Part shown: in pieces, positions 7,154-22,344 of the stretch
Layout: the number at the start of each line of letters is the position of its first letter
How positions within the stretch are numbered: the first letter of the stretch is position 1
Assembly (NCBI GenBank): GCA_050633305.1
Contig: JBOEGF010000010.1
Location: 320,001 to 384,000 of the forward strand
Direction: 5' to 3'
Length of the DNA stretch: 64,000 nt
Source: Nannocystales bacterium
GTDB taxonomy: Bacteria > Myxococcota_A > Polyangia > Nannocystales > Nannocystaceae
Translations under genes and position numbers: made by a program
The notes under the pieces: generated by a model
The model's input: only the letters and a program-made list of their open reading frames with translations
The model's database searches: none
What the model was told of the DNA's origin: nothing

Positions 7154-7540
7154 CTAGCCTTCCATCCGCTTCACCGGGCTGGTCGCGTCGAGTTCGACGC
7201 GCTCGTGCTCGGTGAGGACTTTGGAGCGCGTCAGGAACCGCATGCCCTCGGGCGACTCGAGGGAGAAGCCCGCACCGCGGCCGGCCACCGCATCGATGAC
7301 CAACCGGGTGTGCTTCCACAGCTCCCACTGCGCCGCTCCGATGTAGACCGAACAGCCCTCGATCTCACCCAGGAGGATGTCGCTGCGCCCGAGCTTGAAC
7401 TCCCCCGCGGGGTAGCACATGGGCGCGCTGCCATCGCAGCAGCCACCGGACTGATGAAACATCAGCGGCCCGTGCACGTCGCGAAGCCGCTTGATCAGGC
7501 TCGCCGCGACGTCCGTGACGCCCACCCGGGCAACCGCCAC
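7154..7540 (-). CDS. DUF779 family protein
   Basis: HGPLMFHQSGGCCDGSAPMCY and GRGAGFSLESPEGMRFLTRS; its start overlaps the aldehyde dehydrogenase stop, the usual context for this family. Confidence 0.9.
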   Translation of the reverse strand: MAVARVGVTDVAASLIKRLRDVHGPLMFHQSGGCCDGSAPMCYPAGEFKLGRSDILLGEIEGCSVYIGAAQWELWKHTRLVIDAVAGRGAGFSLESPEGMRFLTRSKVLTEHERVELDATSPVKRMEG

Positions 7541-9060
7541 TAGAAGAACCCCATGGGCTTGGGATCGTAGCTCACCAGCAGGTTCTTGGTCTGCTGGTAG
7601 TGGTCCAGCATCATCTTGTGGTTCTCGCGACCGATGCCGGAGTGCTTGTACCCACCGAACGCAGCATGCGCTGGGTAGAGGTGGTAGCAGTTCGTCCAGA
7701 CACGACCGGCCTCAATCGCTCGACCTGCGCGAAACGCAGTCGCACCGCTGCGAGTCCACACGCCGGCACCGAGGCCGTAGAGCGTGTCGTTTGCGATGTT
7801 GATTGCGTCGTCGTAGTCCTCGAAGCTGGTGACGGAGACGACGGGTCCGAAGATCTCTTCCTGGAACACCCGCATCTTGTTGTTCCCTCGGAAGATGGTC
7901 GGCTGGACGTAGTAGCCACCCGCCAGGTCTCCTTCGAGCTCCGCCCGTGCTCCGCCCATCAGGACCTCAGCACCCTCTTGCTTGCCGATGTCGAGGTAGC
8001 TGAGGATCTTCTCGAACTGGTCGTTCGATGCCTGTGCGCCGATCGTCGTGGCGGGGTCGAGGGGGTTGCCCGGTGCGTGCGTCTTGGCTCGTTCGACGGC
8101 GAGCTCGAGGAACGAACCGTAGATCGACTTCTCCACCAGGGCTCGCGATGGGCAGGTGCAGACCTCGCCCTGGTTGAGCGCGAACATGCCGAAGCCTTCG
8201 AGGCATTTCTGCAAGAAGTCGTCGTTCTCCTGCATCACGTCCGCGAAGAAGAGGTTGGGGCTCTTGCCTCCGAGCTCGAGGGTGACGGGGATGATGTTCT
8301 CCGTCGCGTACTGCATGATCAGCCGCCCGGTGGTGGTCTCTCCGGTAAACGCGACCTTCGCGATGCGGTTGCTCTGCGCGAGGGGCTTTCCCGCTTCGAC
8401 ACCGAAGCCGTTGACGATGTTGAGGACGCCCGGCGGAAGCAGGTCTCCGCATAGCTCCGCGAAGAGCATCAGCGACACCGGGGTCTGCTCGGCCGGCTTG
8501 ATCACCACGGCGTTGCCCGCAGCCAGGGCGGGAGCGAGCTTCCATGCCGCCATGAGCAACGGGAAGTTCCAGGGGATGATCTGGCCGACGACACCCAGTG
8601 GCTCTTTCACGTGATAGGCAACCGTGTTGGCGTCCAGCTCGGCCATGGAGCCTTCTTGGGCGCGGATGCAGCCGGCGAAGTACCGGAAGTGATCGATGGC
8701 CAGGGGAAGGTCGGCGGCCAGCGTCTCGCGGACGGGCTTGCCGTTGTCCCAGCTTTCTGCGACCGCGAAGCGCTCCAAGTTCTGCTCGAGGCGCTCGGCG
8801 ATCTTCATCAGCACCGTCGAACGGTCTCCAGCGCTTGTTTTGCCCCACGCCGGAGCGGCTTTGTGTGCCGCATCCAGGGCTGTCTCGATGTCCTCTGCGG
8901 TGGAGCGCGCAACCTCGCAGAACACCTTGCCGGTCACCGGGGTCACATTCTCGAAGTAGTTTCCTTGGGCCGGTTCGACGAACTCGCCGCCGATGTAGTT
9001 GCCGTAGCGGCTCTTGAAAGTGACGAGGGATCCTTCGGTATTGGGGGCTTTGTAGACCAC
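7540..9060 (-). CDS. aldB: Aldehyde dehydrogenase (AldB/AcoD/ExaC acetaldehyde dehydrogenase type), 506 aa
   Basis: [22 protein letters not shown], catalytic [17 protein letters not shown] and [20 protein letters not shown] 9060 has an AGGA RBS. Confidence 0.95.
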
Positions 9061-9123
9061 GGTGTGTTCCTGGGTTCGAGGTGGGTTCGGGCACCCGCTG
9101 TGGGTGTCTCCACCTGGGCCTTG

Positions 9124-9139
9124 AGCAAGCTTGGTGCCA
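9124..9139 (-). promoter_or_regulatory. sigma54 (-24/-12) promoter of aldB
   Basis: Minus strand TGGCACCAAGCTTGCT equals TGGCAC-N5-TTGC, about 65 nt upstream of the aldB start and next to a sigma54 activator gene. Confidence 0.9.
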
Positions 9140-9191
9140 ATCGTGCGGTTGGGCCGCTGCAACGCGTTCCGCGAGCATGTGTCGCGCCCGC

Positions 9192-9234
9192 CTGTCGCGC
9201 TCGCGACAGCGACACCTGTTGCGTTTCGCGACAG
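9192..9234. promoter_or_regulatory. Putative enhancer (UAS) sites: two tandem inverted repeats
   Basis: CTGTCGCG-CT-CGCGACAG (9192-9209, perfect) and CTGTTGCG-TTT-CGCGACAG (9216-9234), about 55-95 bp upstream of the -24 element. Confidence 0.65.
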
Positions 9235-9297
9235 TCGCGAACTATTCTGATCCCACGCGCGTGGAGTCTCGGGGCTCCGCGAGGCGCGTCGTATTGT

Positions 9298-11238
9298 ATG
9301 GAACTCGATCCCGAACGCGCTGCGTTGACGCTCGACATCGCAGGCGACGCTTCCGAGCAGGTCCACCGGGCCTGGAGTCGCGCGCGCGCGATGGGAGTCG
9401 ACCCGTCAGGCATCGGCCACGTCGAGAGTATCGACGTGGGAAGCGGGCTCGCGGTTCGTCAGCTGTCGATGCAGCACCTGGTGCGTTCCGGCCAATCGGT
9501 TCTGGATGACTTGGCTCGGGACTTGGCCCATCGGCATTTCGCATTGTTGCTCGCGGACTGCGACGGTGTGGTTCTGCATCGGATGGGCGGCGGCGAGTTT
9601 GAGGCCACGGCAGATCATGTCCGACTGATCGAAGGGGCTCATTGGGCGGAGTCCGTCCGAGGCACGAACGCGATCGGGACGGCGCTGGCCGAGAACGCGC
9701 CGGTCAGTGTTCTTGGCGGTGCCCACTACGCACAGCCCAACCAGGCCCTCGTTTGTTACGCCAGCCCGATTCGGGATCCTGGAGGCCAGACGGTCGCCGT
9801 GCTCGATGCTACGGGCGCAATGCCCAACGCCGACGCTTCGGTCAGCGCCGCGGTTCGGTCCGCCGCGACGGCGCTGGAGGATCGGCTGCGCTTGGAGCTT
9901 TGGCCGCAGCGGGGCCCCAACTCGCTGAGGGTCCTTCAGCAAACGCTGCAACGCTGCGCTGTTCCTGCATTTGTCGTCGAGCGTCCGGGGACCGTTCGGG
10001 CTTCCAACTCGTCGGCAGTGGCGCTGCTGGGTCGAGCGACCGCGGCGCGTCTCGACGCGTTGCTCGGCCTCTCCTGGTCCGACCTCGAGCGACTGATTCA
10101 GACCGGAGACCTGCCTCAGTGCGCAGCCGGGCGGCTCGCTCACGCGTTTCCCCATCAGCAACTGCACGTCGAGCCAGTTCTCGATCTGCACGGAGATGTC
10201 TGGGCGGCGGTCGTGTTCCTCGAGCCCCTGCCGGTCCTCCGGCGAATCCGGCCCGCCTCATCGACCACGCCGACGCTGCCTTCGGCGTTCGCACGTATCT
10301 GTGGCTCCGACCCCGGGCTGAAGGCGGTGCTGCAGCACGCGGCCTTGGTTGCCGAGACAACGTTGCCCATCCTGATCCGCGCCGAGACCGGCACCGGCAA
10401 GGAGCTGCTCGCCGCTGCTGTGCATCACGCCAGCGACCGCGCGGATGAGCCGATGGTGTCGCTCAACTGCGGTGCTGTGCAGCCAGAGCTCATGGCCAGT
10501 GAGCTGTTTGGCTATGCTCCGGGCGCGTACACAGGCGCGGATCCCAAAGGCCGAGAGGGCACCGTCGCGGCGGCAGCTGGGGGCACGTTGTTCCTCGACG
10601 AGCTCGCGGACATGCCCAAGGCGCTCCAGGTGTTGCTGCTGCGGTTTTTGGAGAGTGGCAGCTACCAACGGGTCGGCGAGTCAAAGCTGCGGCACGTCAA
10701 CGTCCGCCTCGTCTGTGCGACGTGCCGTGACCTCGACGCGCTTGTGGAGTCCGGCGAGTTTCGTCGCGACCTCTACTTCCGCATCAAGGGGGCGTGCCTT
10801 CGCCTTCCGCCGCTGCGGGCTCGTGACGACCTCGCGGAGCTCGCCAACGAGCTCCTCGACGAGCTGGCGGATGCCGAGTCGCTCGATCCCCGACCCCGCT
10901 TGTCCGAGCAGGCTCTGCTTCGGCTCCAGGGTCACGATTGGCCGGGGAACACTCGAGAGCTCAAGATGGTGCTTCATCACGCCCTTGCGCTGACTCGGGG
11001 ACGGACAGACATCGGTGCGGACGACATCCCGCTGCCTCAGGTCTCTTCGAGGCCGTCGGTCGTCCCGGGAGCCGAGCCGGGTTCGATGCACGACCACAAG
11101 CGTGCCGCGTTGGCTCAAGCGCTCTGCGATGCAAACGGAAACGTCTCCGCTGCGGCACGAGCCCTCGGTGTGGCTCGCAGTACCATCTATCGACAGCTAC
11201 AGCGCTACGGCTTGCTGAGCGGTGTCGACGGATCCTGA
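9298..11238 (+). CDS. GAF-domain sigma54-dependent activator, AcoR-like (GAF-AAA+-Fis HTH)
   Basis: [18 protein letters not shown] motif, ETGTGKE Walker [29 protein letters not shown] and [21 protein letters not shown]. Confidence 0.93.
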
Positions 11239-11283: not shown

Positions 11284-12033
11284 TCAGCTCATCGAGGCGC
11301 CGCCGTCGACGTCGATGGTGCGACCGTTGAAGTAGTCGCATTCGAGCACGAAGCGAACCGCGCACCAGATGTCCTGCGGGGTGCCGATGCGGCCGACCGG
11401 GATTCCTGCAACGAGCGCGTCACGGGCCTTCTGGTTCATGCCCTGTGTCATGGGAGTTTCGACCATGCCTGGGGCCACCGCGCCCACGCGGACCCCCATC
11501 GGCGCAAATTCGCGGGCCCAAGTCACGGTGTTCGCGGCGAGAGCGGCCTTCGTCGCGACGTAGTTGCTCTGACCGCGGCTGCCGTGCCGGGAAATACTGG
11601 AGATATTCACGACCACGCCGCCGGCGACCTCGGTCTGCAAAGCGTTGAGGGCAAAGGCACGTGTCATGAACATGGCGCCGGTGAGGTTCACCGCGAGGAC
11701 CGAGTTCCACGCCTCGGTGCTCATGGTGGATAGCTCGCCGGTTCTTCGACTGCGCTTGGCAAGCAGACCATCACGGATGATGCCCGCGTTGTTGATCAGG
11801 CCGTTGACGCCACTCAGCTCGTCCTGCGCCCATTGAACAAACGCGTCGCAGTCGGCCTCGTCGGTCACGTCCAGCCTTCGCTTCGCGACATTGTCGGGAA
11901 GCGATGCGAGTCCCTCGGTATCGACGTCGCCCGCGGCGACCTGCGCTCCGGCTTCTGCGAGTTGGGTTGCAAAGTGGGCGCCCATGCCTCGGCCGGCTCC
12001 CGTGACGATGATCTTCAGTTGGTCCAGTTGCAT
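11284..12033 (-). CDS. SDR oxidoreductase, FabG-like; probable acetoacetyl/3-oxoacyl-CoA reductase (PhaB role) by context
   Basis: TGAGRGMG, NNAG, NISS, YVATK and VAPG; lies downstream of phaR and the phasin-like gene. Confidence 0.85.
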   Translation of the reverse strand: MQLDQLKIIVTGAGRGMGAHFATQLAEAGAQVAAGDVDTEGLASLPDNVAKRRLDVTDEADCDAFVQWAQDELSGVNGLINNAGIIRDGLLAKRSRRTGELSTMSTEAWNSVLAVNLTGAMFMTRAFALNALQTEVAGGVVVNISSISRHGSRGQSNYVATKAALAANTVTWAREFAPMGVRVGAVAPGMVETPMTQGMNQKARDALVAGIPVGRIGTPQDIWCAVRFVLECDYFNGRTIDVDGGASMS

Positions 12034-12117
12034 CGGTGATCCTTCTTGTGCGTGTCGATGAAACGCGTGCGCCGCTCCGTCGAGCGGCGCACTACGGGGG
12101 CGTCGCTCGTCCGAGCG

Positions 12118-12444
12118 CTAGCTGTTGCTGTTGGCAAACGCGCTCATCGTGCGGCGCGAGGCGGTCATGCCAAGGTTCATCCACTGCTGGCTGAGCTGGA
12201 TGCCGTAGTTCATCGATGCCTTGACGACCTCGGTCATCTCGTCGGCGGCCTCGCGGGTCCGACGAAGGTTGGCTTCCTGCGCCTTGGCGAGGTCGTCGAG
12301 GCCCTGCGTAACCAGGGCGCGTTGATCCTGCAGGGTCTCGGTCATAGGAGACCACATTTGTTGCGCCTGCGAAAAGAAATCCCGCACTGCGTCATTTGCA
12401 GCCGAGGTGGTAGACGCGCCAGAGGACGGCTTCTGAGCTTCCAT
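12118..12444 (-). CDS. Phasin-like (PhaP) small helical protein (alternative start TTG 12480)
   Basis: About 108 aa, Ala/Gln/Met-rich and amphipathic-helical; sits between phaR and the SDR, with a PhaR-type operator upstream. Confidence 0.65.
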   Translation of the reverse strand: MEAQKPSSGASTTSAANDAVRDFFSQAQQMWSPMTETLQDQRALVTQGLDDLAKAQEANLRRTREAADEMTEVVKASMNYGIQLSQQWMNLGMTASRRTMSAFANSNS

Positions 12445-12487
12445 GAGCTGAGAAGTAGTCAGTCTAGGCTGGCCTGTCAATTCAATT

Positions 12488-12502
12488 TTGTGCGGTGCAC
12501 AA
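12488..12502. promoter_or_regulatory. PhaR-type operator upstream of the phasin-like gene
   Basis: Perfect inverted repeat TTGTGC-GGT-GCACAA in an AT-rich patch, with a TGC-N3-GCA core. A TTGACA lies on the minus strand at 12480-12475. Confidence 0.75.
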
Positions 12503-12504
12503 TT

Positions 12505-13065
12505 TTACGTGGCGTCGTCTCCACCCCGGACCGCTCGCTTCAGCTCCTCGAGTTCCGCCCGCAACGCTTGGAGGTCATCACTCACGCTGGGCGACTCCTG
12601 CTCAGTCGGCGGGGGGGGAGGTGCGGTCGGGGGCGAGGGGGTGGATGCTGGCGGAGCCTGTCCCGGCCAAAACGGTGCGCCCGCGAACATGCGGGCGAAA
12701 GGGCCACCTGCTCCCCAGGGCCCAGATCCGAAAGGGAGCATTGAACCGAGAGTTTGCCCCCCACTCTTCACGCTCAGGTAGACGTCTAGAGCCCAAGTGA
12801 CGTAGCTGGAGAAGAATTCGGCGATGGCGTCATCCTGCATCCGCAGCAGGCGGTGAAGAAGACCCACAGGCAAGAGCTTGGCGGTGGGACTCTCGAGAAT
12901 GAGCTGCGTCAGCGTCATCTGGGTAAGGTCATCACCCGATTTTGCGTCCACGACTCGGACCTCTTCCCCGTCGCGGATCTTGGTCGCGAGTTCGTCGAGC
13001 GTGATGTATCGGCTCAGCCCCGTGTCGTAGAGGCGCCGGTTGCTGTACTTCTTAATGATCGTCAC
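12505..13065 (-). CDS. phaR: PHA synthesis repressor PhaR
   Basis: IIKKYSNRRLYDT...YITLDEL...VRVVDAKSGDDLT...LTQLILE is the PhaR N-terminal DNA-binding domain. GTG 13065 has GGAG upstream. Confidence 0.9.
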   Translation of the reverse strand: MTIIKKYSNRRLYDTGLSRYITLDELATKIRDGEEVRVVDAKSGDDLTQMTLTQLILESPTAKLLPVGLLHRLLRMQDDAIAEFFSSYVTWALDVYLSVKSGGQTLGSMLPFGSGPWGAGGPFARMFAGAPFWPGQAPPASTPSPPTAPPPPPTEQESPSVSDDLQALRAELEELKRAVRGGDDAT

Positions 13066-13081
13066 GCCGAGGAACTCCGTG

Positions 13082-13094
13082 CTGTGCGCCGCAA
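13082..13094. promoter_or_regulatory. PhaR-type operator upstream of phaR (autoregulation)
   Basis: CTGTGC-GCC-GCAA, about 20 bp upstream of the phaR start. Confidence 0.6.
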
Positions 13095-13171
13095 TATCCC
13101 ACTGGCGCTTCACAATGGTCAACTCTCGCTGCGTGCCTTGCGAAGTGGACTCAGTGCCATCCCAGTGGCAC

Positions 13172-13228
13172 TTGACGGCGCGGTGAACACCCCGATAGTC
13201 TCCGGCGGGCTAATGGTGCAGCGCAGCA
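13172..13228 (+). promoter_or_regulatory. Putative sigma70 promoter plus PhaR-type operator for the rightward operon
   Basis: TTGACG (13172-77), 18 nt, TAGTCT (13196-201), then TGC-AGC-GCA-GCA at 13217-13228 over the first codons. Confidence 0.55.
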
Positions 13229-14187
13229 TATTCGGTTCGAGGCTGACGCTTCTTCTGGTCCTCTCGGGGTGTGGGGACGACGCGTCGGCGTGTGTCGTGG
13301 GTGCCGACTGCCCTTCGGGCCAGTGCAGCGCTCAGGGCGAGTGCGTGCCCGTCGCTGGCACATCGTCATCCGGCGAGCTGGGCTCATCGGGCGCAGAGAC
13401 TTCGACGGGGTCGAGCACCACCGCCGAGAGCGACGACGCCTCCGGGGGGGTGGACGAGAGCAGCACAACCTCCTCGGGTCCGGCGGATTGCATGCCGCCC
13501 AACGGAGATGGCGTCATCGAGCGGGGCGAGCTGCGGTTCGAGCCAGACCTGCAGGTCAACTACCGTGCGGCCCAGGCGGTCACGTTTGATACGGCTGGCT
13601 CGACGATCGACGGTGAAACCGTCTGGGACATGTCGGTCGAGTTTCCGGGGGACCACACGAGCAGTGGTGAGTTTCTGTCGGTCGAAGGGCAGTGGTTCGA
13701 GCCGTCATTCCCAGGGGCCACGTATGCGACGCGTTTGACGGATGCCGATGACTTGCTCGGGGTGTTTGAGGCCACGGACAGCGCGTTGACCCTACGCGGG
13801 GTGGTCTCGCCGGTCGGCGGCGCTCAGCGGACCGAGCTCGTCTACGACCCTCCGGTGACGGTCCTGAGCTTTCCGCTGGTGCAGGGCAAGGCTTGGGAGT
13901 CGGACGCCAACGTCACGGGGGTCGCGCTGGGCATTCCGACGGGCTACACAGAGAACTACCAGAATCGGATCGACGCGTCGGGCACGTTGCGGACACCCTT
14001 CGGCGACTACGAGGTCTTGCGTGTGGGCGTCGTGCTGACGCGGACCTTTGGCATCGTCCCCACCGTCGTACGGACCTTCGCGTTTGTCAGTGAGTGCGTC
14101 GGAACGGTGGGCAGCGTGCGTTCCAATGACAACGAGGACTCGCCCGAGTTCACACAGGTGGCGGAAGTCCGGAGGATCGACCCTTGA
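13213..14187 (+). CDS. Lipoprotein A of unknown function (paralogue of 16753-17589)
   Basis: Lipobox LVLSG-C, small Cys-rich domain, Ser/Thr linker, then a beta-rich domain from CMPPNGDGVI to ECVGTVG...EFTQVAEVRRI. Confidence 0.8.
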   Translation: MVQRSIFGSRLTLLLVLSGCGDDASACVVGADCPSGQCSAQGECVPVAGTSSSGELGSSGAETSTGSSTTAESDDASGGVDESSTTSSGPADCMPPNGDGVIERGELRFEPDLQVNYRAAQAVTFDTAGSTIDGETVWDMSVEFPGDHTSSGEFLSVEGQWFEPSFPGATYATRLTDADDLLGVFEATDSALTLRGVVSPVGGAQRTELVYDPPVTVLSFPLVQGKAWESDANVTGVALGIPTGYTENYQNRIDASGTLRTPFGDYEVLRVGVVLTRTFGIVPTVVRTFAFVSECVGTVGSVRSNDNEDSPEFTQVAEVRRIDP

Positions 14188-15167
14188 AACGACTCGCAGC
14201 CGCGGCGGCGGGAATGCTGTTGGGTGGCTGCCTCCATTTTCATGATGGTCCGCTGCCGAACGAGCCGGCGGATGCTCGTTTCGCCGATGTGCAGGACGCT
14301 CGTGTACGGTTTGTCGACGAAGGCCAGGGGCCTGCAGTCGTCTTGATCCACGGATTCGCGAGTTCGCTGGAGAACTGGGACCCCGTGCTCGAGGACCTCC
14401 TCGAGGGACACCGGGTCCTCGCGCTGGATCTCAAGGGGTTCGGCTGGACGGACCGGCCCGAGGGGGACTACTCGCCCTCGGCCCAAGCCGCGCTGGTGTT
14501 TGCACTCATGGATCAACGGGGCATCGAGCGAGCCGCCGTCGTGGGCCACTCTTGGGGGTCTTCGGTCGTGTTGGCGATGGCGCTCGATCAACCCGAGCGT
14601 GTCGAGCGTATCGCGCTGTACGACGCGTGGGTGTTCGAGGAGCAGCTGCCTCCGATGTTCGTCTGGGCCCGGGCGAAGGGCCTCGGGGAGCTGCTGTTCC
14701 GGTTGTTCTACTTGGAACGACCCGACGACAAGGTTGAGCTGGCCTATCACGACCGCTCGGTCGTCTCGCAGGATCACGTCGAGGCGATCGAGCAGGCCCA
14801 AGCCCGACCCGGCACCACCGCCGCCGCACTCGCAGCGGTACGCGGTCAGCGGTACGCGGAGGTGCAGCGGCACTACCACGAGATCGAGCAGCCGGTGCTC
14901 CTCCTGTGGGGCCGCGAGGACAGGATCACACTGCTCGAGGACGGCGAACGCTTGGCCGGGACGCTGCCCAACGCCGAGCTCCGAGTGTATCCCAACTGCG
15001 GGCACTTCCCGATGCGTGAGGCCGAGCCGGCGTCCACGCGCGCGCTCGTCGACTTCCTCGCACCGGCTAGAACCAAGATGCCGGAACCAGAGGTGACTGC
15101 GGAGCCGGAATCCACACCACCACAGGCCGAGCTCCAGCCTGCCGAGGTTGCGGGAGTTGTGCCATGA
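14184..15167 (+). CDS. Lipoprotein alpha/beta-fold serine hydrolase (esterase/lipase-like)
   Basis: Lipobox LLGG-C, HGF oxyanion loop, DLKGFG, nucleophile GHSWG, WGREDRIT and CGHFP. TTGA overlap with the upstream gene. Confidence 0.88.
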   Translation: MKRLAAAAAGMLLGGCLHFHDGPLPNEPADARFADVQDARVRFVDEGQGPAVVLIHGFASSLENWDPVLEDLLEGHRVLALDLKGFGWTDRPEGDYSPSAQAALVFALMDQRGIERAAVVGHSWGSSVVLAMALDQPERVERIALYDAWVFEEQLPPMFVWARAKGLGELLFRLFYLERPDDKVELAYHDRSVVSQDHVEAIEQAQARPGTTAAALAAVRGQRYAEVQRHYHEIEQPVLLLWGREDRITLLEDGERLAGTLPNAELRVYPNCGHFPMREAEPASTRALVDFLAPARTKMPEPEVTAEPESTPPQAELQPAEVAGVVP

Positions 15168-16750
15168 CGCCTGTCGTCTCCGCACTCCTCTCGACGTTGG
15201 CGCTGGCGCCCGCGCCCGAGGCGGACGAGCCGACCACCCAGGGGCTTGGGAACTACGGTGTCTCGCTTGGCCAACGCCGAGCCAAGGTGTGGGAGATCGG
15301 CGGCTATGCCCGGATGCGCGGCGAGCTGCAGCACAACTACGACCTCGATCACGGGCCCACGCCCGGCGGCCAGCTGCTCTATCCACTGCCGCTGGGCAAC
15401 CCGAGGCGCCAACTCCTGACCCGGGCGGATATGCGTTTGCGAACGGACCTTTCCGCCCACGCGCCTCGTGGTTGGGTCTCGATGAACGTTCGCTTGGATG
15501 TTCTCGACAACTTCGCGCTGGGCTCTTCTCCCGCGGGCGTGCCTGCGGCCACGGCGACCCAGGTGTCCGGGGCGGAGGTCATCCGGGTGAAACGAGTGTT
15601 CGCGCAGGTGCTCACGCCGCTGGGCGTCATCGCGGTCGGTCGGATGGGGAACCACTGGGGCCTGGGTATGCTGGCCAACAGCGGGGACTGCTCGGGTTGC
15701 GACAGCAGCGATGCATCCGATCGCATCGCGTGGGCACTGCCTGCGTTCAAGCATGTGTTTGCGTTGGCCTACGACATCTCTGCGTCTGGCCCCTTCGTCT
15801 CCGACGCCGCCGGCACCCGTGCCATTGGAGTCGCGCCCCGGGCAGCGGTGCACTCGGTCACAGGAGCGCTCCTGCGGAGTCGCTCTCCCAACTCACTCGC
15901 GCGCCGTCGGGCCGGCGGGCGGTTGACCTTCGAGTACGGCGCCTATGGGTCTTATCGGTGGCAGAACTTGGACGTTCCGAGCACCTACCTTCCGCTGGCC
16001 AGCGCTGCGCCCGAACTCGATCGCGGCCAACTGATGATCCGCGGGTACCAGGCCGCGGCGGCCGACGGATGGCTTCGATTGACAGGCAAGTGGTTTCGGG
16101 TCGAGACCGAAGGTGCGTTCCTGTGGGCAAACGTCGAGCAGCCGTCGCTGATCCCAGGCGTGTCTCTTCCACGCCCCGCGACGTCGAGGCAGGGCGGGGT
16201 TGCGCTGGAGAATGAAGTCGGGGAAGTCAATGGGCGGTGGAGCGTGGGGCTCGATCTCGGGTTCGCCAGCGGCGATCGTGCACCAGGGTTCGGGGCGTAT
16301 CCGGCCGTCAACGGAGCCGCGCCCGTGCCTGGGGATCTCGACGGCGCACAGGCGACGCCTCCGTACGACAACGCGGTGAACAACTTTCGGTTCCACTCCG
16401 ACTACCGTGTCGATCGCATCCTCTTTCGCGAGATCATCGGCACGGTCACAGACGCAACGTACGTGCGTCCACATGCCCGGTACACGGCGTGGCGGGGGCC
16501 AACAGGGCAACTCGACATCAACCTCGCGGGCGTGTTCTCAGCCGCGGTCGAGCCAACATCGACACCGGGCCAACAGCGACCTCTCGGTGTGGAGCTCGAC
16601 CCCTCCATCGTCTTTCGCACCAACTTCGCGCTCGAGGCAGCATTCGAGCCGGCGCTCCTCATACCCCTGTCTGGCCTCGACAACGTCGCGGCTGGCTACG
16701 CCGCCAAGCCTGCGCAGCTGTACCGCGCCCGCTTGCAGTTCAACTTCTAA
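15164..16750 (+). CDS. Outer-membrane beta-barrel protein, resembling myxobacterial TIGR04551-type proteins
   Basis: Signal peptide, alternating amphipathic strands (GYARMRGEL, DMRLRTD, GRMGNHWGLGMLANSG, NFRFHSDYRVDRILFREIIG) and C-terminal LQFNF. ATGA overlap. Confidence 0.78.
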   Translation: MTPVVSALLSTLALAPAPEADEPTTQGLGNYGVSLGQRRAKVWEIGGYARMRGELQHNYDLDHGPTPGGQLLYPLPLGNPRRQLLTRADMRLRTDLSAHAPRGWVSMNVRLDVLDNFALGSSPAGVPAATATQVSGAEVIRVKRVFAQVLTPLGVIAVGRMGNHWGLGMLANSGDCSGCDSSDASDRIAWALPAFKHVFALAYDISASGPFVSDAAGTRAIGVAPRAAVHSVTGALLRSRSPNSLARRRAGGRLTFEYGAYGSYRWQNLDVPSTYLPLASAAPELDRGQLMIRGYQAAAADGWLRLTGKWFRVETEGAFLWANVEQPSLIPGVSLPRPATSRQGGVALENEVGEVNGRWSVGLDLGFASGDRAPGFGAYPAVNGAAPVPGDLDGAQATPPYDNAVNNFRFHSDYRVDRILFREIIGTVTDATYVRPHARYTAWRGPTGQLDINLAGVFSAAVEPTSTPGQQRPLGVELDPSIVFRTNFALEAAFEPALLIPLSGLDNVAAGYAAKPAQLYRARLQFNF

Positions 16751-16752
16751 CG

Positions 16753-17589
16753 ATGTCTGTCTTTCGCTCTGTGTTGCTCGCTGGCCTCGCCCTCGCAGGA
16801 TGTGATGGCAATGGTGCGCTTCCGCCGGACCGTCCGCTCTACGAAGGTGAGGATGAAGTCCCGCTGGACTGCATTCCCAACCTCGATGGTGTGATCGACG
16901 CCCACGAGCTGCCGCTGGTGCTCGGCGCTGAGGTCACGTACCTCGTGTCTCCTCCCGGAGAGCTTCGAACCGTCGATATCGAAGGAGCAGGGGAGAGCAC
17001 GACGCGGGGTTGGGACTGGTCGGTCGACCTGGCCGACGATCAACTCGCGCGCATCTCCGCCTTCTCCACCGAGGAGCGCTGGTACGCCGACCGTTTTCCC
17101 CCCGATGCTTTCGTGGCCCCCTTTGACGACGGCGGAAGTACGGAGACCATCTCGCGTCGGGACGACGACGGACTCTACGTCCTTGGGATTGCCTCGCGTG
17201 AGTCGGACCCACCGACCGGCCGAACACTGCTGATCTACGACGAGCCGATCCCGTTGATCCGGTTTCCCGTCGAGACGGGCACGAAATACTCGTCCTCTGC
17301 GAACGTGCAGGATGCGGTCTTTCACGGGATCCCGTACGCCGCCCGGGACACGTACGAGGTTGAGGTCTCGGCGGTGGGCGAGCTGCGGCTGCCCACCCTT
17401 TCGTTCTCTCAGGCCCACCAAGTTCGGATTCAGCTCACCGTAGAGCCTGCGCTGGGGGAGACCACCTCGGTTCGACAAGTCAGCTACTTCTTCGAATGCT
17501 TCGGAGAGGTCGCACGCGCCACCAGCCAGCTGGACGAGCCTGACCCCAACTTCACCGAGGCCGCCGAAGTGCGACGCCTTGGCTACTGA
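16753..17589 (+). CDS. Lipoprotein B of unknown function (paralogue of 13213-14187)
   Basis: Lipobox LALAG-C; CIPNLDGVI, LIYDEPIPLIRFPV and ECFGEVA...NFTEAAEVRRL mirror lipoprotein A. Confidence 0.82.
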   Translation: MSVFRSVLLAGLALAGCDGNGALPPDRPLYEGEDEVPLDCIPNLDGVIDAHELPLVLGAEVTYLVSPPGELRTVDIEGAGESTTRGWDWSVDLADDQLARISAFSTEERWYADRFPPDAFVAPFDDGGSTETISRRDDDGLYVLGIASRESDPPTGRTLLIYDEPIPLIRFPVETGTKYSSSANVQDAVFHGIPYAARDTYEVEVSAVGELRLPTLSFSQAHQVRIQLTVEPALGETTSVRQVSYFFECFGEVARATSQLDEPDPNFTEAAEVRRLGY

Positions 17590-17610
17590 ACGCCGCCCAC
17601 GGAGCCCACC

Positions 17611-17910
17611 ATGAACCTCTGGAAAACCTGGAAGACCGCCTTCGACGGTTGGGAAAACAACACTGCACAGTTGCTGGACCCCATCGTCCGAAGTGCGCGG
17701 GTGTTGGAGCCCGTCGGCTCTGCGTTGAGCGCCACCATGAAGCTCAAGGCGATGACCGATCGAGTCGCGGCAGCGTGGTGGGGGGCGATCGGTTTGCCCA
17801 CGCGGCGAGATCAGGAGCGTGCGTTGCACAAGCTCAACACGCTGGAGAGCCGTATCCTCGACCTCGAGGAGCAGCTCGAGGACGCGGGTTCCGCTCGGGA
17901 GGGGAAGTGA
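17611..17910 (+). CDS. Small PhaE-like / class IV PhaR-like PHA synthase accessory subunit
   Basis: GGAG RBS; helical protein with GLPTRRDQERALHKLNTLESRILDLEEQL, resembling the PhaE C-terminal motif and coiled coil; upstream of phaC. Confidence 0.7.
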   Translation: MNLWKTWKTAFDGWENNTAQLLDPIVRSARVLEPVGSALSATMKLKAMTDRVAAAWWGAIGLPTRRDQERALHKLNTLESRILDLEEQLEDAGSAREGK

Positions 17911-19640
17911 TGGACGTCGCGGCATACTTGGAACTCAAGCCTGCACCCGCGATCCTGCTCGAGCGGGCGGAGACCCGCGGGGCGCAGCCTCGGTACATGC
18001 TGCCCACCGACGATGGTGGCTGGAAACCGCGGACGTGGGCCGAGCACGCGACGGCGGTTCGCGACGTCGCCGCGGCACTGGTCGAGCGTGGGTTGCATGG
18101 CACGGAGCGTGTGGCGATCTTTGCCGGGAACAGCACCGCATGGATCGAGTCCGCGCTTGGAGCCCAGGCGGCTGGTCTTGTCGTGGTCCCGATCTACCCG
18201 GCATCGACGGCGGAGCAGGCCAGCTACGTGCTCGAACACAGCGACGCGCGCGCCTTGTTCGTCGGAGGGGAGTCGCTCGTTCGCCGTGCGCTGAGAGCTT
18301 GGGAAAGCCTGGATGCTGTCGGTACGGTTGTGGTCCTCGATGACACATCCGTCACCGAGGTGCTCGATGGGATGCGAGATGAGGGAGATCGGGTCCCGTC
18401 GTCGGATTGGGTGCAGCGGAGGTTCGTCCATGTCAGCCAGCTTCGCGAGCAGGGCCGAGCAGCCCGCGTCGCCCATCCCACCCTCGTCGAGGAGCGCTTG
18501 GCGGACATCCGCATGGAAGACCCGGCGCTGATGCTCTACACCAGCGGTACGACGGGTCGCCCCAAGGGCGTGCCGCTCTCGCATCAGAACATCGGGGTCA
18601 ATGCCCGGGACTGGGTCGTCAACAACGGGCCCGCGCTTCCTGAAGATGGAGTGGATGTGCTGTGGCTCCCCATGAGCCACATCTTCGGGTTCGGTGAGGC
18701 GTGTCTGGGGAACAACCTCGGTTTCACGTCCTACCTCTGCAACCCCAAGCAGGTGATGGATGTTCTCCCGACGGTCCGGCCGAATGTCTTCATGAGCGTG
18801 CCCGCCTACTGGGAGAAACTCGCTGGTTCGTCTATCGGGATCGAGGACGACGCGGCGGCCAAACAGGCGTTGAGCGAGGCCACGGGCGGTCGCCTTCGCT
18901 TCTGTCTTTCTGGGGGCGCCGGTCTCAGCATTCCCGTCAAGGAGCACTACAAGCGCTGCGGAGTGCTCATCATCGAGGGCTACGGGCTCACGGAGTGCTC
19001 ACCAACCCTCACGCTCAACCGTCCCGCCGACTATCGTTTCGACTCGGTGGGGAAGCCGCTGCCTTCCGTTGAACTCGAACTCGCCCCCGATGGAGAGATC
19101 TTGGCCCGGGGCCCGAGCGTGTTTGGTGGCTACCACAAGGACCCGGGCGCGACGGCGGCCGCATTCGACGACAACGGCTGGTTCAAGACCGGTGACATTG
19201 GACGTTGGACGGAAGACGGCTTCTTACAGATCGTCGACCGCAAGAAGGAAATCCTGGTCACGGCAGGTGGAAAAAACGTGCCTCCTGCCAACATCGAGCG
19301 CTTGTTCGCGAGCGATCCGCTCTTCGCCCATGTGGTCGTCTATGGCGATGGCCGGAAGTACCTCGTTGCAGGTGTGTGGCTCGACACCGAAGTGCTCGCC
19401 GAACGTCTCGCCGCGATGGCAGCGGCGCCCGACGACGCCGCAGCTCGAGAATCGCTGGTGCAGGCCGCAGTGGACGCGGCCAACGCGAAACTGGCCCGCT
19501 TCGAACAGATCAAGCGCTTCCGAGTCATGGAGCGCCCGCTGAGCGTCGAGGAGGGGCTGCTCACCAGCACCCTCAAGATCCGTCGCAAGCACATCTACAA
19601 GGCGTTCTCCGGCGCCTTTGAGGGGCTCTACGCGTCATGA
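17910..19640 (+). CDS. Long-chain fatty acid-CoA ligase (AMP-binding family)
   Basis: YTSGTTGRPKG, EGYGLTE, GWFKTGDIG, DRKKEILVTAGGKNV and LTSTLKIRR. TGATG coupling to the upstream gene. Confidence 0.93.
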   Translation: MDVAAYLELKPAPAILLERAETRGAQPRYMLPTDDGGWKPRTWAEHATAVRDVAAALVERGLHGTERVAIFAGNSTAWIESALGAQAAGLVVVPIYPASTAEQASYVLEHSDARALFVGGESLVRRALRAWESLDAVGTVVVLDDTSVTEVLDGMRDEGDRVPSSDWVQRRFVHVSQLREQGRAARVAHPTLVEERLADIRMEDPALMLYTSGTTGRPKGVPLSHQNIGVNARDWVVNNGPALPEDGVDVLWLPMSHIFGFGEACLGNNLGFTSYLCNPKQVMDVLPTVRPNVFMSVPAYWEKLAGSSIGIEDDAAAKQALSEATGGRLRFCLSGGAGLSIPVKEHYKRCGVLIIEGYGLTECSPTLTLNRPADYRFDSVGKPLPSVELELAPDGEILARGPSVFGGYHKDPGATAAAFDDNGWFKTGDIGRWTEDGFLQIVDRKKEILVTAGGKNVPPANIERLFASDPLFAHVVVYGDGRKYLVAGVWLDTEVLAERLAAMAAAPDDAAARESLVQAAVDAANAKLARFEQIKRFRVMERPLSVEEGLLTSTLKIRRKHIYKAFSGAFEGLYAS

Positions 19641-20695
19641 TGAAGGGCGTCTTCAACTTGGCGCGGCGGGCCAAACACGGGCTGCCCGACGTCGGTCAAA
19701 CTCCAGCGGATGTCGTGCACGCGGAGAACAAGTGGTCGTTGCTTCGCTACCGCCCTGGGCCCGACGGGCTCGCGCCCGGCCGCCCCATCGTGTTGGTACC
19801 CTCGCTCATCAATCGGCACTACGTGCTCGACTTGATGCCCTCGAAGAGCTTTGTCGAGTTCCTCGTCGATCAAGGCCGGGACGTCTACATCATCGACTGG
19901 GGGACGCCGACCGCCGAGGACCGGTTCGTCACCTTCGACGACATCGCAGACCGAATCCTGCACCGCGCGTTTCGTGTTGCGGCGAAACTCTCCGGGAGCC
20001 CCGATGTCCACGTGTTGGGGTACTGCCTCGGGGGCACCCTCACTGCGATTCACGCTGCGGTCCGGCCGGCGCGCGTCGCCACCCTCACCGTGTTGGCTGC
20101 CCCCGTCGATTTCCACGACGACGGCCCGTTGTCGCAGTGGACCAACACGAAGAGCTTCGATCTCGATGCGCTGGTGTCCGCGACCGGGCTCGTGCCGTGG
20201 CCGCTCATGCAGGCAGCCTTCTACTTGCTTCGGCCGACGATGATCCTGTCCAAGGGAGTCACGCTTGCTGATCGGGCATGGAACGACGAATTTCTCGACG
20301 GGTTCCTGGCGATTGAGCGATGGGGGAACGACAACGTTTCGTTTCCAGGCGAGTGCTACAAGCGCTACATCGGTCGGCTCTACCGGGACAACGCGCTGAT
20401 CCGTGATGCGTTCTCACTCAGCGGCGAGCGTGTTTCGTTGTCCAACATCATGTGCCCCGTCCATGCCGTCACGTTCGGCCACGACAACATCGTCCCCTGG
20501 CGGAGCGCTGCCAAACTCGTGGACGTTGTGGGGACGCAGGACAAGAAGCACTTGCACCTTCCCGGGGGCCATGTGGGGGCCGTGGTATCCAAGAAGGCCC
20601 GGCACAAGCTGTGGCCCGAGCTACTGGGGTGGTGGGAGGAGAGAGACGGTGGCCCCGCAGTGCGCTCGGTCTCGGTTGACGCCGCTGGGAGCTGA
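19637..20695 (+). CDS. phaC: PHA synthase catalytic subunit, class III/IV size (352 aa)
   Basis: GQTPADVV, VPSLINRHYVLDL, IDWG, Cys lipase box GYCLGG, PVDF, Asp in HDNIVP and His in GGHVG. Confidence 0.88.
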   Translation: MMKGVFNLARRAKHGLPDVGQTPADVVHAENKWSLLRYRPGPDGLAPGRPIVLVPSLINRHYVLDLMPSKSFVEFLVDQGRDVYIIDWGTPTAEDRFVTFDDIADRILHRAFRVAAKLSGSPDVHVLGYCLGGTLTAIHAAVRPARVATLTVLAAPVDFHDDGPLSQWTNTKSFDLDALVSATGLVPWPLMQAAFYLLRPTMILSKGVTLADRAWNDEFLDGFLAIERWGNDNVSFPGECYKRYIGRLYRDNALIRDAFSLSGERVSLSNIMCPVHAVTFGHDNIVPWRSAAKLVDVVGTQDKKHLHLPGGHVGAVVSKKARHKLWPELLGWWEERDGGPAVRSVSVDAAGS

Positions 20696-20720: not shown

Positions 20721-21755
20721 ATGCGGCACAGTGCGTTCGGCATCTCGGTAGCGTTGGGCATGCTCCTCGCGTGCGACGGCGGAGACAAGCAGGCTCCAGC
20801 GAAGCCGACGGTGAAACCCGCCAAGGCTGTGGAGTCCAAAGCGGGGAGCCACGAGGAGCCCACGGCCGCAGCCGAGCCGGTGGTCAAGGTCATCCGGCCA
20901 CAGGACGAGCAGCCGAACGCCGCGGATGCACCCCCTTCAGAAAAACTCGCGGACTTGGTCGCAGCGGAACCCGGTCAAGCCTACGGCCAGGTCCTCGTGC
21001 AAGCCCGCTCCGAAGAAAACCACATCGCGGAGCTGACGGTCGTCCGGGCCGAAGGTGTCAAAGCCCGGAGCGGCTCGGTGCGCTATACGGCCGAGCCACG
21101 TGTGGTCGTGGCGAAGGCCAAGACGATCGTGCACGAGGCGAACCTTCTGGGCACCGGGATCTCGATCGACATCGATGGTGACGGAAAGACGAACGCCAAG
21201 ATCCCGACGAAATGCGACGGTGGTGCGGCCGTCCTCGAAACCCAACCTCCACTTCGCCTCGAACCTGTGACGGAGCTATCGGATGCGGTCGCACGCTTTG
21301 ACTATGGCAAAGCCGATGCCCATGTTCTTGCAAACGAGGGGGCCGGCGCACTGCTGTACGCCCCGTGCGACAAGCAGACCCTCATCCTCGGCCTCGATCC
21401 GTCAGGCCCGCTGAAGATGCATGAGGTCCCCAGTCCCGCGGCATTCGTCGTGTACCGGGTGGCGGTTGAGTCTGCCGAGACCGAGGACCCCTTCACGTTG
21501 CAGAAGGTCAACAGCGGCGAAACGGAGGTTGAACACGACCTGTACTCGTTCCGAGAGGTCTCGGTCGAAGCGGACGAGGTCAAGGTCTACGCAGCCCATC
21601 TCGTCGTGTTCGCGCTCGACCCCGAACCCGCGCTGCAGCATGTGACGCTGGAGATCGCCGGGGAGAAGCCAGAGTTCATCACCGCTTCGGTCAACGAAGT
21701 CGACGGCGATGGCCAGCGTATTCGGTACGCCGACGGCTTCAAGCCGTTCCGCTGA
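20721..21755 (+). CDS. Hypothetical lipoprotein
   Basis: Lipobox MLLA-C, Lys/Pro/Ala linker and a beta-rich body. Confidence 0.75.
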   Translation: MRHSAFGISVALGMLLACDGGDKQAPAKPTVKPAKAVESKAGSHEEPTAAAEPVVKVIRPQDEQPNAADAPPSEKLADLVAAEPGQAYGQVLVQARSEENHIAELTVVRAEGVKARSGSVRYTAEPRVVVAKAKTIVHEANLLGTGISIDIDGDGKTNAKIPTKCDGGAAVLETQPPLRLEPVTELSDAVARFDYGKADAHVLANEGAGALLYAPCDKQTLILGLDPSGPLKMHEVPSPAAFVVYRVAVESAETEDPFTLQKVNSGETEVEHDLYSFREVSVEADEVKVYAAHLVVFALDPEPALQHVTLEIAGEKPEFITASVNEVDGDGQRIRYADGFKPFR

Positions 21756-21834
21756 GAGACCGGCCTTCGGGTCCCCGCGCAGCTCCAGCCCGCGCAGACG
21801 TGACAACGAAGGCGCAGTAGCCTACCTACAGAGG

Positions 21835-22344
21835 GTGAAGGTTCTCGGACGGTTGCTGGTCGCCCTTGCTCTCGTTGTCGCGTGTTCCGCGGGAGGGCCC
21901 CGTCTGGCGGAGGGCGCCCAAGCTCCTGCGCTGAAGGCACAGGCTCACGACGGTACCGCGGTCGACCTCTCGAAGCTCGATGGCAACCCCACCCTCGTTT
22001 TCTTCTATCCGAAAGACGGAACGCCGGGGTGCACGAAGGAAGCCTGCGCGTTTCGAGACGTGTGGGACGACTACCAGGCCGCGGGCGTGACCATTGTCGG
22101 GGTCTCCGCGGACTCTGCGGAGTCCCACAAGTCCTTCGCCGCCGAACATGGGCTGCCGTTTCCGCTGGTCGCCGATGAGGAAGGGACTTGGGCGAAGGCG
22201 TTCGGTGTTGACACCACGTTGGGTATGACGAGCCGCGAGAGCTTCTTGATCGGTCCGGGAGGAACCGTCGCAAAGGTCTATCCAGGCGTGGATCCCGGGG
22301 TGCACGCCGCCGAAGTCCTCAACGATGCGCGCTCTCTGCAATGA
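21835..22344 (+). CDS. bcp: Peroxiredoxin BCP/PrxQ with a lipoprotein signal
   Basis: FYPKDGTPGCTKEAC, GVSAD and LPFPL; N-terminus MKVLGRLLVALALVVA-C. Confidence 0.88.
   Translation: MKVLGRLLVALALVVACSAGGPRLAEGAQAPALKAQAHDGTAVDLSKLDGNPTLVFFYPKDGTPGCTKEACAFRDVWDDYQAAGVTIVGVSADSAESHKSFAAEHGLPFPLVADEEGTWAKAFGVDTTLGMTSRESFLIGPGGTVAKVYPGVDPGVHAAEVLNDARSLQ

Follow-up and report, generated by a model that had tools for sequence, protein, structure and literature searches.

Polyhydroxyalkanoate (PHA) is seen as a storage material that cells make from central metabolites and keep in the cytoplasm. Here we describe a locus in a Nannocystales bacterium in which PHA genes share an operon with four genes for envelope proteins. 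The window analysed is a stretch of 64,000 nucleotides (assembly GCA_050633305.1, contig JBOEGF010000010.1, positions 320,001 to 384,000), and the locus lies at positions 11284 to 20695. Seven genes read rightward in the order lipoprotein A (lipA), lipoprotein hydrolase, outer-membrane barrel, lipoprotein B (lipB), PhaE-like subunit, acyl-CoA ligase and PhaC. They diverge from genes for the regulator PhaR, a phasin-like protein and a short-chain dehydrogenase/reductase (SDR). Re-reading of the sequence bears out this order, the seven-gene operon and all six junctions of a preliminary description: a TTGA overlap at 14184, ATGA at 15164, a 2-nt gap (16751-52), a 21-nt gap (17590-17610), TGATG at 17910 and ATGA at 19637. 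GC content at the third codon position is 0.73-0.83 in every gene. The features are as follows.

11284..12033, minus strand: SDR, a FabG/PRK08217-like 3-oxoacyl reductase (PF13561, 152 bits; NF006072, 254 bits against a cut-off of 298)
12118..12444, minus strand: small amphipathic protein of 108 amino acids (aa), probable phasin by size, position and upstream PhaR box; ATG start at 12444
12491..12499, no strand assigned: predicted PhaR box ahead of the phasin-like gene (fourth among 1246 genome-wide core matches)
12505..13065, minus strand: PhaR regulator, GTG start at 13065 (PF07879, 92.5 bits, above cut-off; single copy in the genome)
13085..13093, no strand assigned: predicted PhaR box just past a leftward sigma70-like promoter at 13122-13093 (rank 114 of 1246)
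13172..13199, plus strand: sigma70-like promoter of the rightward operon, weak alone
13213..14187, plus strand: lipoprotein A, with lipobox Cys20, a four-Cys module, a Ser/Thr linker and a beta-sheet domain paralogous to lipB
13217..13225, no strand assigned: predicted PhaR box overlapping the first lipA codons (rank 2 of 1246; fits the consensus in the available part of PMC6201568)
14184..15167, plus strand: lipoprotein alpha/beta serine hydrolase, Cys16, Ser123-Asp246-His274 (PF00561)
15164..16750, plus strand: outer-membrane beta-barrel of about 18 strands, a PHA-linked paralogue of TIGR04551
16753..17589, plus strand: lipoprotein B, with Cys17, conserved Cys40 and Cys249 and an open beta-sheet of BDI_3050/YmcC type
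17611..17910, plus strand: mini-PhaE, 99 aa, resembling the PhaE C-terminal part only (PF09712, E 1e-5; TIGR01834, E 1e-6)
17910..19640, plus strand: acyl-CoA ligase of FadD11-like long-chain type (PF00501 and PF23562; best match NF038343, below cut-off)
19637..20695, plus strand: class III-like PHA synthase PhaC, Cys130-Asp283-His312 (TIGR01836, 258.7 bits)

The preliminary description tied the envelope genes to phaC, and the two are syntenic across Myxococcota. We compared the best 80 of 484 confirmed barrel stretches in GTDB genomes, a set biased to close relatives, of which 44 have at least 8 kb on both sides (full-flank loci). Matches to lipA, the hydrolase, lipB and the ligase are present in all 44, phaR in 43, phaC in 42, the mini-PhaE in 40 and an SDR in 32. 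A small open reading frame resembling the phasin-like gene stands at the equivalent position in 58 of 100 loci. The hosts include Polyangiaceae, Myxococcaceae, Kofleriaceae, Sandaracinaceae and Bradymonadales records. The closest named relatives among the matches listed are Nannocystaceae, and named relatives are all Myxococcota; the carriers with names, among the best 80 of 484 stretches and the best 120 proteins per search, are metagenome assemblies. Twenty more distant loci were reached from weaker lipoprotein matches. A phaC-like gene is still found in 18 of them, with the pha genes upstream, downstream, divergent or convergent and often with a different ligase.

The same association is seen across 301 genomes of the phylum. 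Orthologues of the lipoproteins and of the hydrolase (E <= 1e-35) occur in an identical set of 81 genomes, as compared by eye. All 81 have a phaC match at E <= 1e-15, and 78 have one at E <= 1e-40. Among the 56 genomes with a close PhaC orthologue, 53 carry the envelope cassette. Kin genomes are not independent and no P value is attached to this co-occurrence. In the query genome (11.0 Mb) PhaC, PhaE and PhaR are each single-copy, and no other phaC was found in it. PHA genes are reported from most Myxococcota bins in the available part of PMC11821767.

The TGCRNYGCA core used to predict PhaR boxes is the PhaR consensus footprinted in Bradyrhizobium (PMC6201568, available part), and a similar motif appears in the accessible part of PMC12542648. 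Two promoter-like sites were found in 11.6 kb, against 0.9 +/- 0.9 in shuffles. Both lie in the phaR-lipA intergenic region, and each of these divergent sigma70-like promoters is followed by a core site (13085 and 13217). A matrix built from 108 sites of other genera ranks the lipA box second and the phasin box fourth of 1246, a result that training on like regions favours. Of 67 loci that have all of phaR, lipA and hydrolase, 13 were set aside because genes had been inserted or a lipobox was not identified. A predicted core lies in the phaR-lipA intergenic region of 53 of the remaining 54. These regions contain 90 sites over 13.9 kb, or 6.5 per kb, compared with 0.08 per kb for the operon body, and in 36 of the 54 a core stands 30-120 nt ahead of the lipA Cys codon.

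Because such an intergenic box might act on phaR only, rearranged loci were examined. A box precedes the hydrolase gene where a 6-kb insertion has split the cassette (L145), and one precedes lipA in five loci in which phaR is not the divergent neighbour (L110, L087, L127, L129 and L131). A transcript starting separately at 17590-17611, which would have parted the envelope genes from phaE, is not indicated: no promoter-like match was found there, and core boxes in the lipB-phaE gap are confined to 3 of 85 loci. Neither a separate promoter nor a PhaR box precedes phaE in the window. The cassette and the PHA genes are thus apparently under the same regulator, as judged from predicted sites. Since synteny is kept and there is no sign of a separate transcript, a functional link between the envelope cassette and the pha genes is well supported by these comparisons.

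Predicted boxes also precede an unlinked operon. The boxes ranked first and seventh genome-wide stand before a contig C7 operon (G000:C7:49262-52800; L169:5263-8800) that encodes a KAS III (above the PRK09352 cut-off), a cytoplasmic alpha/beta hydrolase and a Na+/solute symporter (SSS). Carriers of this family work in uptake. The box at -36 is conserved in three same-genus genomes and not in G018. The symporter family occurs within 14 of 100 cassette loci; in one locus (L149) the symporter gene is co-oriented and directly precedes lipA. A gene of the major facilitator superfamily (MFS) takes the position directly before lipA in six loci. A symporter orthologue is present in 59 of the 301 genomes; phaC accompanies it in 58 and the cassette in 41. 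Five genes, namely phaC, phaR, the symporter gene and those for the barrel paralogue and the KAS III orthologue, are without a match in the sister genome G002 (92% complete, 40 contigs), and G003, G004, G006 and G018 have all five. This joint absence in one incomplete genome is suggestive of a tie between the C7 operon and the locus, and the operon could supply an inner-membrane step. Immediately upstream of this operon, in the same orientation, is a gene resembling Rieske oxygenases, with a weak match to GbcA. Lineages without the cassette often have tandem phaC genes beside the same symporter family and an acyl-CoA ligase (L165; G225, G274 and G215). Uptake-coupled PHA synthesis may extend beyond the cassette.

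The locus barrel passes the TIGR04551 cut-off marginally (301.4 bits against 300). A second TIGR04551 copy on contig C18 scores 390 bits and is 27% identical to it. A barrel search of 40 genomes gave some match in 39 and a strong one (E < 1e-80) in only 12. In a quick maximum-likelihood tree of 41 barrels, each trimmed to its last 500 residues, a single branch (SH-aLRT 100) splits 20 cassette barrels from 21 canonical TIGR04551 proteins. No homologues of the pha, lipoprotein or hydrolase genes stand beside the canonical gene at any of its 21 loci. By this tree the locus barrel is a separate clade and not an orthologue of the near-universal TIGR04551 member. TIGR04551 has reportedly been proposed as a MYXO-CTERM sorting candidate; no mention of TIGR04551 was found in the full-text literature searched.

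The AlphaFold model of the barrel (predicted local distance difference test, pLDDT, 87.7) has about 18 strands as read from the DSSP list. AlgE heads both fold searches (Z 24.0, root-mean-square deviation (rmsd) 4.7, 364 residues aligned), nearly tied with the Campylobacter major outer membrane protein (MOMP; Z 23.2, rmsd 3.8, 341 aligned), and BenF/Occ porins follow at Z ~22. The fold is therefore of the AlgE/PgaA type of polymer secretion through its AlgE match, and is equally of the MOMP type. Because exporter and importer folds are nearly tied, it gives no direction of transport. A search of the PDB with the barrel profile found nothing, and a Pfam scan gave no match to the FadL family (PF03349). 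Three PF03349 genes lie on other contigs of this genome, which argues that the cargo is not free fatty acid. Twelve Arg and eleven Asp/Glu, each conserved in at least 80% of 117 sequences, are placed on the lumen side by a strand-parity estimate, not from coordinates. A lumen charged in this way would fit a carboxylate-bearing substrate. Other 18-stranded myxobacterial barrels are treated as polysaccharide porins in the available part of PMC9603273.

The hydrolase is conserved at its lipobox Cys (85/86) and at its catalytic Ser (86/86), Asp (86/86) and His (85/86). It has no PF10503 or PF06850 depolymerase domain and scores far below the cut-offs of NF050089 (78.6 against 300) and TIGR02240 (46.8 against 250.6). 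Identification as a known PHA depolymerase was rejected, as the matches are generic alpha/beta ones. They include 6i8w (E 4e-21), which we take to be the membrane phospholipase PlaF, and the signature is that of a generic esterase. The ESM Atlas holds a Myxococcota hydrolase cluster of 861 aa, and for this reason fusions were sought. Hydrolase and barrel share one reading frame in 5 of 122 loci (not de-duplicated by genome). In three of these (L120, L201 and L135) there is a Pro/Ala-rich linker, and a second signal peptide is lacking; L120 and L201 look related. In the other two (L139 and L140) a signal-like stretch persists, and read-through may account for them. Even-stranded outer-membrane barrels begin in the periplasm. 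Taken together with the fusions, this means that the hydrolase most likely sits in the periplasm under the channel and acts on whatever passes, not on the surface. An autotransporter-like surface display is possible.

The two lipoproteins have no Pfam or NCBIfam match. They are paralogues (31% identity), and the lipobox Cys is conserved in 74 of 76 lipA and 80 of 81 lipB sequences. The residue that follows this Cys varies in the lipoproteins and in the hydrolase and is therefore uninformative about sorting. The family comprises 771 representatives at 50% identity. The lipB model (pLDDT 94.3) resembles the Parabacteroides lipoprotein BDI_3050 (4fvs; Z 10.2, rmsd 3.8, 173 aligned) and, more weakly, YmcC/GfcB (2in5; Z 6.9, rmsd 4.5, 157 aligned). 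Foldseek gave no lipB match at E <= 0.001 (best E 2e-3), and a PDB search with the lipoprotein profile returned weak EF-hand proteins only (E ~0.1). These include lanmodulin (E 0.1), matched by a conserved Asp/Gly-rich loop at lipB residues 40-52 (16870-16915); the same loop occurs in lipA. By this resemblance the lipB loop may bind calcium. The domain is also found in three tandem copies, as separate genes or as one protein of 790-890 aa (P0251, P0258, L077, L126, L127, L129 and L131). The tandem arrangement suggests a repeating binding unit. YmcC is GfcB, has a LolA-like fold and binds the barrel GfcD, according to the available part of PMC8592465.

Family scans support the pha labels of the polyester genes, although PhaC, PhaE and the SDR do not reach the curated cut-offs. 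PhaC falls below the class III cut-off (258.7 bits against 365.3 for TIGR01836). The Cys-Asp-His triad of the operon-type PhaC, with its G-x-C-x-G box, is invariant (C130, D283 and H312, each 56/56), and the protein resembles the N-terminal part of PRK07868 acyl-CoA synthetases (E 3e-20). The mini-PhaE scores 25.4 bits against a PF09712 cut-off of 25.7 and is not a full-length PhaE subunit, as its 99 aa cover only profile positions 230-304 of 311. The best matches of the ligase are long-chain ligases, all below cut-off; in distant loci it is replaced by a PRK06187-type long-chain ligase that is above the PRK06187 cut-off. The best match of the SDR is the FabG-like PRK08217 and not PhaB, and the protein is below the cut-off of every family shown. 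It is a candidate source of the (R)-3-hydroxyacyl monomer. The phasin-like protein had no phasin family match in family scans. A second mini-PhaE in its place was considered and rejected, as pairwise comparison at that sensitivity showed no similarity.

Several variations were seen around these genes. Most relatives have a second PhaC (~40% identical) between the phasin-like gene and the SDR, which is missing here (12033-12118) and in the same-genus loci L049, L050 and L037. Loss of catalysis in the second copy was considered and rejected, because its triad is intact (C 64/64, D 63/64, H 62/64). A ligase-phaC fusion in L055 was discarded as an artefact of a frameshifted assembly. A PhaC/PhaZ-like protein with DUF3141 and PHB_depo_C matches adjoins phaR in distant loci (L133:3352-4515, L134, L136, L137, L083 and L088); in L083 and L088 its gene directly precedes lipA. 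The locus SDR has a 66%-identical paralogue standing alone at G000:C21:15306-16049. Elsewhere in the genome are two MaoC-type genes and four PF10503 genes, and no 3-hydroxybutyrate dehydrogenase above cut-off was found in it. Left of the locus (7154-11238) lie a gene resembling aldehyde dehydrogenases and a small partner ORF, both recognised only by sequence; they diverge from a sigma54 activator gene whose 3' end converges on the SDR. To the right (20721-22344) a lipoprotein gene without a family match begins 25 nt past phaC and is followed by a peroxiredoxin gene; neither is among the families common to related loci.

We propose that the locus encodes a PhaR-controlled line in which acyl esters enter, are cleaved in the periplasm, activated with CoA and polymerised to a stored polyester, and we give this proposal an even chance. 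The barrel would admit acyl esters or short oligoesters ending in a carboxylate, for instance fragments of PHA or lipids from prey or detritus. The paralogous lipoproteins, by their LolA/YmcC-type fold, may hold or pass on hydrophobic cargo at the outer membrane. The lipid-anchored serine hydrolase, with its conserved triad and its occasional fusion to the barrel, would be tethered beneath it and cleave the cargo to (hydroxy) fatty acids. The inner membrane might be crossed by the Na+/solute symporter, by the MFS carrier or by simple diffusion; the first of these co-occurs with the cassette and shares the PhaR box. The long-chain-type ligase would then form acyl-CoA, KAS III and the SDR could give (R)-3-hydroxyacyl-CoA, and mini-PhaE/PhaC would polymerise it, as the families of these enzymes suggest. 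Granules titrate PhaR off its boxes. At the boxes predicted here this would raise uptake during storage.

Import is favoured because the recurrent inner-membrane partner is an uptake carrier, because a long-chain-type ligase has been recruited twice (incoming acids need a ligase and outgoing polymer does not), and because no transmembrane synthase or exporter is conserved. The preliminary description had the envelope module hydrolyse extracellular or prey-derived polyester or lipid before import and re-polymerisation. The functional link stands, and import followed by re-polymerisation is the best reading. A direct attack on extracellular polymer is improbable, since the fusions point to a hydrolase in the periplasm. 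In the available part of PMC7460792 Bradymonas accumulates PHA-like granules during predation, in a strain not shown to bear the cassette. Nannocystis is sorted among PHA- and polyphosphate-positive cells in the accessible part of a preprint (10.1101/2025.03.24.644850).

A number of observations weigh against import and storage. Short monomers are the usual preference of class III synthases, and long-chain ligases are a poor fit to this. The best fold match of the barrel is a polymer exporter, ~2 Z above the Occ uptake porins and tied with a general porin, and with three FadL-family genes present plain fatty-acid entry needs no new barrel. Of the 81 cassette genomes 40 have no symporter match, 85 of 301 genomes have a phaC match and no cassette, and G015, G301 and G246 keep a close PhaC orthologue without it. 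The cassette occurs without phaC in the fetched stretch in G266, G330 and G279, which have only weak phaC-like matches genome-wide, and in loci L077, L107, L110, L141, L146 and L148. No core box directly precedes the cassette in L094, L126, L128, L146 and L148-L151, among others. The modelled lipoprotein fold resembles GfcB/YmcC of a capsule export system (PMC8592465, available part).

A more specific idea is that the barrel, the two lipoproteins and the hydrolase form a system dedicated to polyester translocation, with PHA oligomers crossing the outer membrane either outward to a surface coat or inward from lysed prey for re-polymerisation. We hold this tentatively, as somewhat improbable. 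Outward translocation would be a polyester counterpart of alginate or poly-N-acetylglucosamine (PNAG) secretion; inward translocation would mean that a predator takes over the storage polymer of its prey.

Polyester export is an unlikely explanation, and the strongest of the rivals. By analogy with synthase-dependent polysaccharide secretion (Pga, Alg, Bcs), an oligo- or polyester made by PhaEC would be chaperoned by the lipoproteins, trimmed or released by the periplasmic hydrolase and passed out through the AlgE-like barrel. Synthase and barrel are indeed encoded in one operon, the position of AlgE at the head of both fold searches and the twelve conserved Arg estimated to face the lumen agree with export, and so do the six loci with an MFS gene directly before lipA. 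In PgaA/PgaB a periplasmic lipoprotein hydrolase lies under a barrel, which is the topology proposed here. The likeness of the lipoproteins to GfcB, which binds the barrel GfcD (PMC8592465, available part), points the same way. However, the families common to 100 loci include no conserved inner-membrane exporter, ABC system or transmembrane synthase, nor any universal membrane family. None of the ten locus proteins has a transmembrane segment able to export a polymer, and no 19-residue hydrophobic window above 1.6 past the signal region occurs in PhaC, PhaE or the ligase. Export also leaves the ligase unexplained and sits badly with a recurrent transporter that is an SSS importer; PhaR and the phasin-like gene are signs of granules in the cytoplasm.

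Envelope recycling is less probable still. The cell's own outer-membrane or vesicle lipids (or those of kin) would be turned into PHA, or PHA hydroxy acids would be returned to the envelope in starvation, with the barrel as a scaffold or lipid gate. The LolA/YmcC-like folds, the generic esterase signature with its 6i8w match and the PhaR boxes that would tie expression to granule status are all compatible with it. A porin-like barrel with a conserved charged lumen, however, is not needed to reach the cell's own periplasm-facing lipids, and a patchy spread (81/301) suits an ecological trait.

We regard a product other than PHA as quite improbable. PhaC-like enzymes would here make another acyl ester (an oligoester, a wax-like compound or a surface lipid) in a lipid-modifying pathway that reuses pha genes. 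The sub-threshold PhaC with its PRK07868 likeness, the short PhaE, the long-chain ligases that are always adjacent and the two divergent PhaC copies of most relatives could be read in this way, but PhaR, its boxes, the phasin-like gene and the intact synthase triad form a standard granule kit. It is very improbable that the cassette is unrelated and merely lies beside the pha genes, as the few loci without a nearby phaC and the non-independence of related genomes might suggest, because the link outlasts many rearrangements and ligase replacement, every cassette genome has a phaC match, and the cassette keeps its own PhaR boxes when displaced.

The system is real and conserved, and is apparently undescribed and new in architecture; no description of it was found in the full-text literature, with most subscription journals outside coverage. 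Its working logic may be a variant of porin-plus-periplasmic-hydrolase uptake. Uptake of medium-chain-length PHA breakdown products is ascribed to passive diffusion, with no gene identified, in the available part of PMC13101487, and natural PHA release is of unknown mechanism in that of PMC7147478. The locus offers named candidate parts for this gap in PHA uptake or release, in about a quarter of sampled genomes of Myxococcota, a phylum rich in predators and often met in soil and sludge. One branch of TIGR04551 barrels and a lipoprotein family without a Pfam model also gain a first functional context. If import is true, the locus would define how predators recycle prey lipid or PHA; if export is true, it would be relevant to bioplastic recovery.

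The locus shares parts with several known systems. The canonical TIGR04551 barrel of Myxococcota belongs to the same hidden Markov model family, but is near-universal with wholly different neighbours, whereas the locus paralogue is patchy. Class III PHA loci likewise have a Cys-Asp-His PhaC, a PhaE-like partner, PhaR with its boxes, a small phasin-like gene and a reductase. They differ in that here PhaE is only 99 aa, PhaC is below the TIGR01836 cut-off, a long-chain acyl-CoA ligase stands between phaE and phaC, and four envelope genes are in the operon. The OccD/OccK (OprD/OpdK) carboxylate porins have the same 18-stranded fold (Z ~22) and Arg-rich lumen, whereas the locus barrel has no sequence similarity to solved structures; we know of no dedicated lipoprotein-hydrolase partners of Occ porins.

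In the AlgE/AlgK/AlgL, PgaA/PgaB and BcsC/BcsZ systems an AlgE-like barrel, accessory lipoproteins and a periplasmic hydrolase are encoded with a polymer synthase, as here. The locus, in contrast, has no glycosyltransferase, transmembrane synthase-translocase or tetratricopeptide repeat match, and its polymer would be a polyester. The group 4 capsule system GfcB/GfcC/GfcD (PMC8592465, available part) also has a YmcC/GfcB-fold lipoprotein adjoining an outer-membrane barrel, but the resemblance in fold is modest, the two barrels differ in type and the locus has no GfcC, OPX or Wzc-like gene. FadL/FadD vectorial acylation similarly couples an outer-membrane channel to a cytoplasmic acyl-CoA ligase. 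Here the barrel is non-FadL with ~18 strands, two lipoproteins and a hydrolase are added, PhaR provides a link to PHA regulation, and the line ends in a polymerase.

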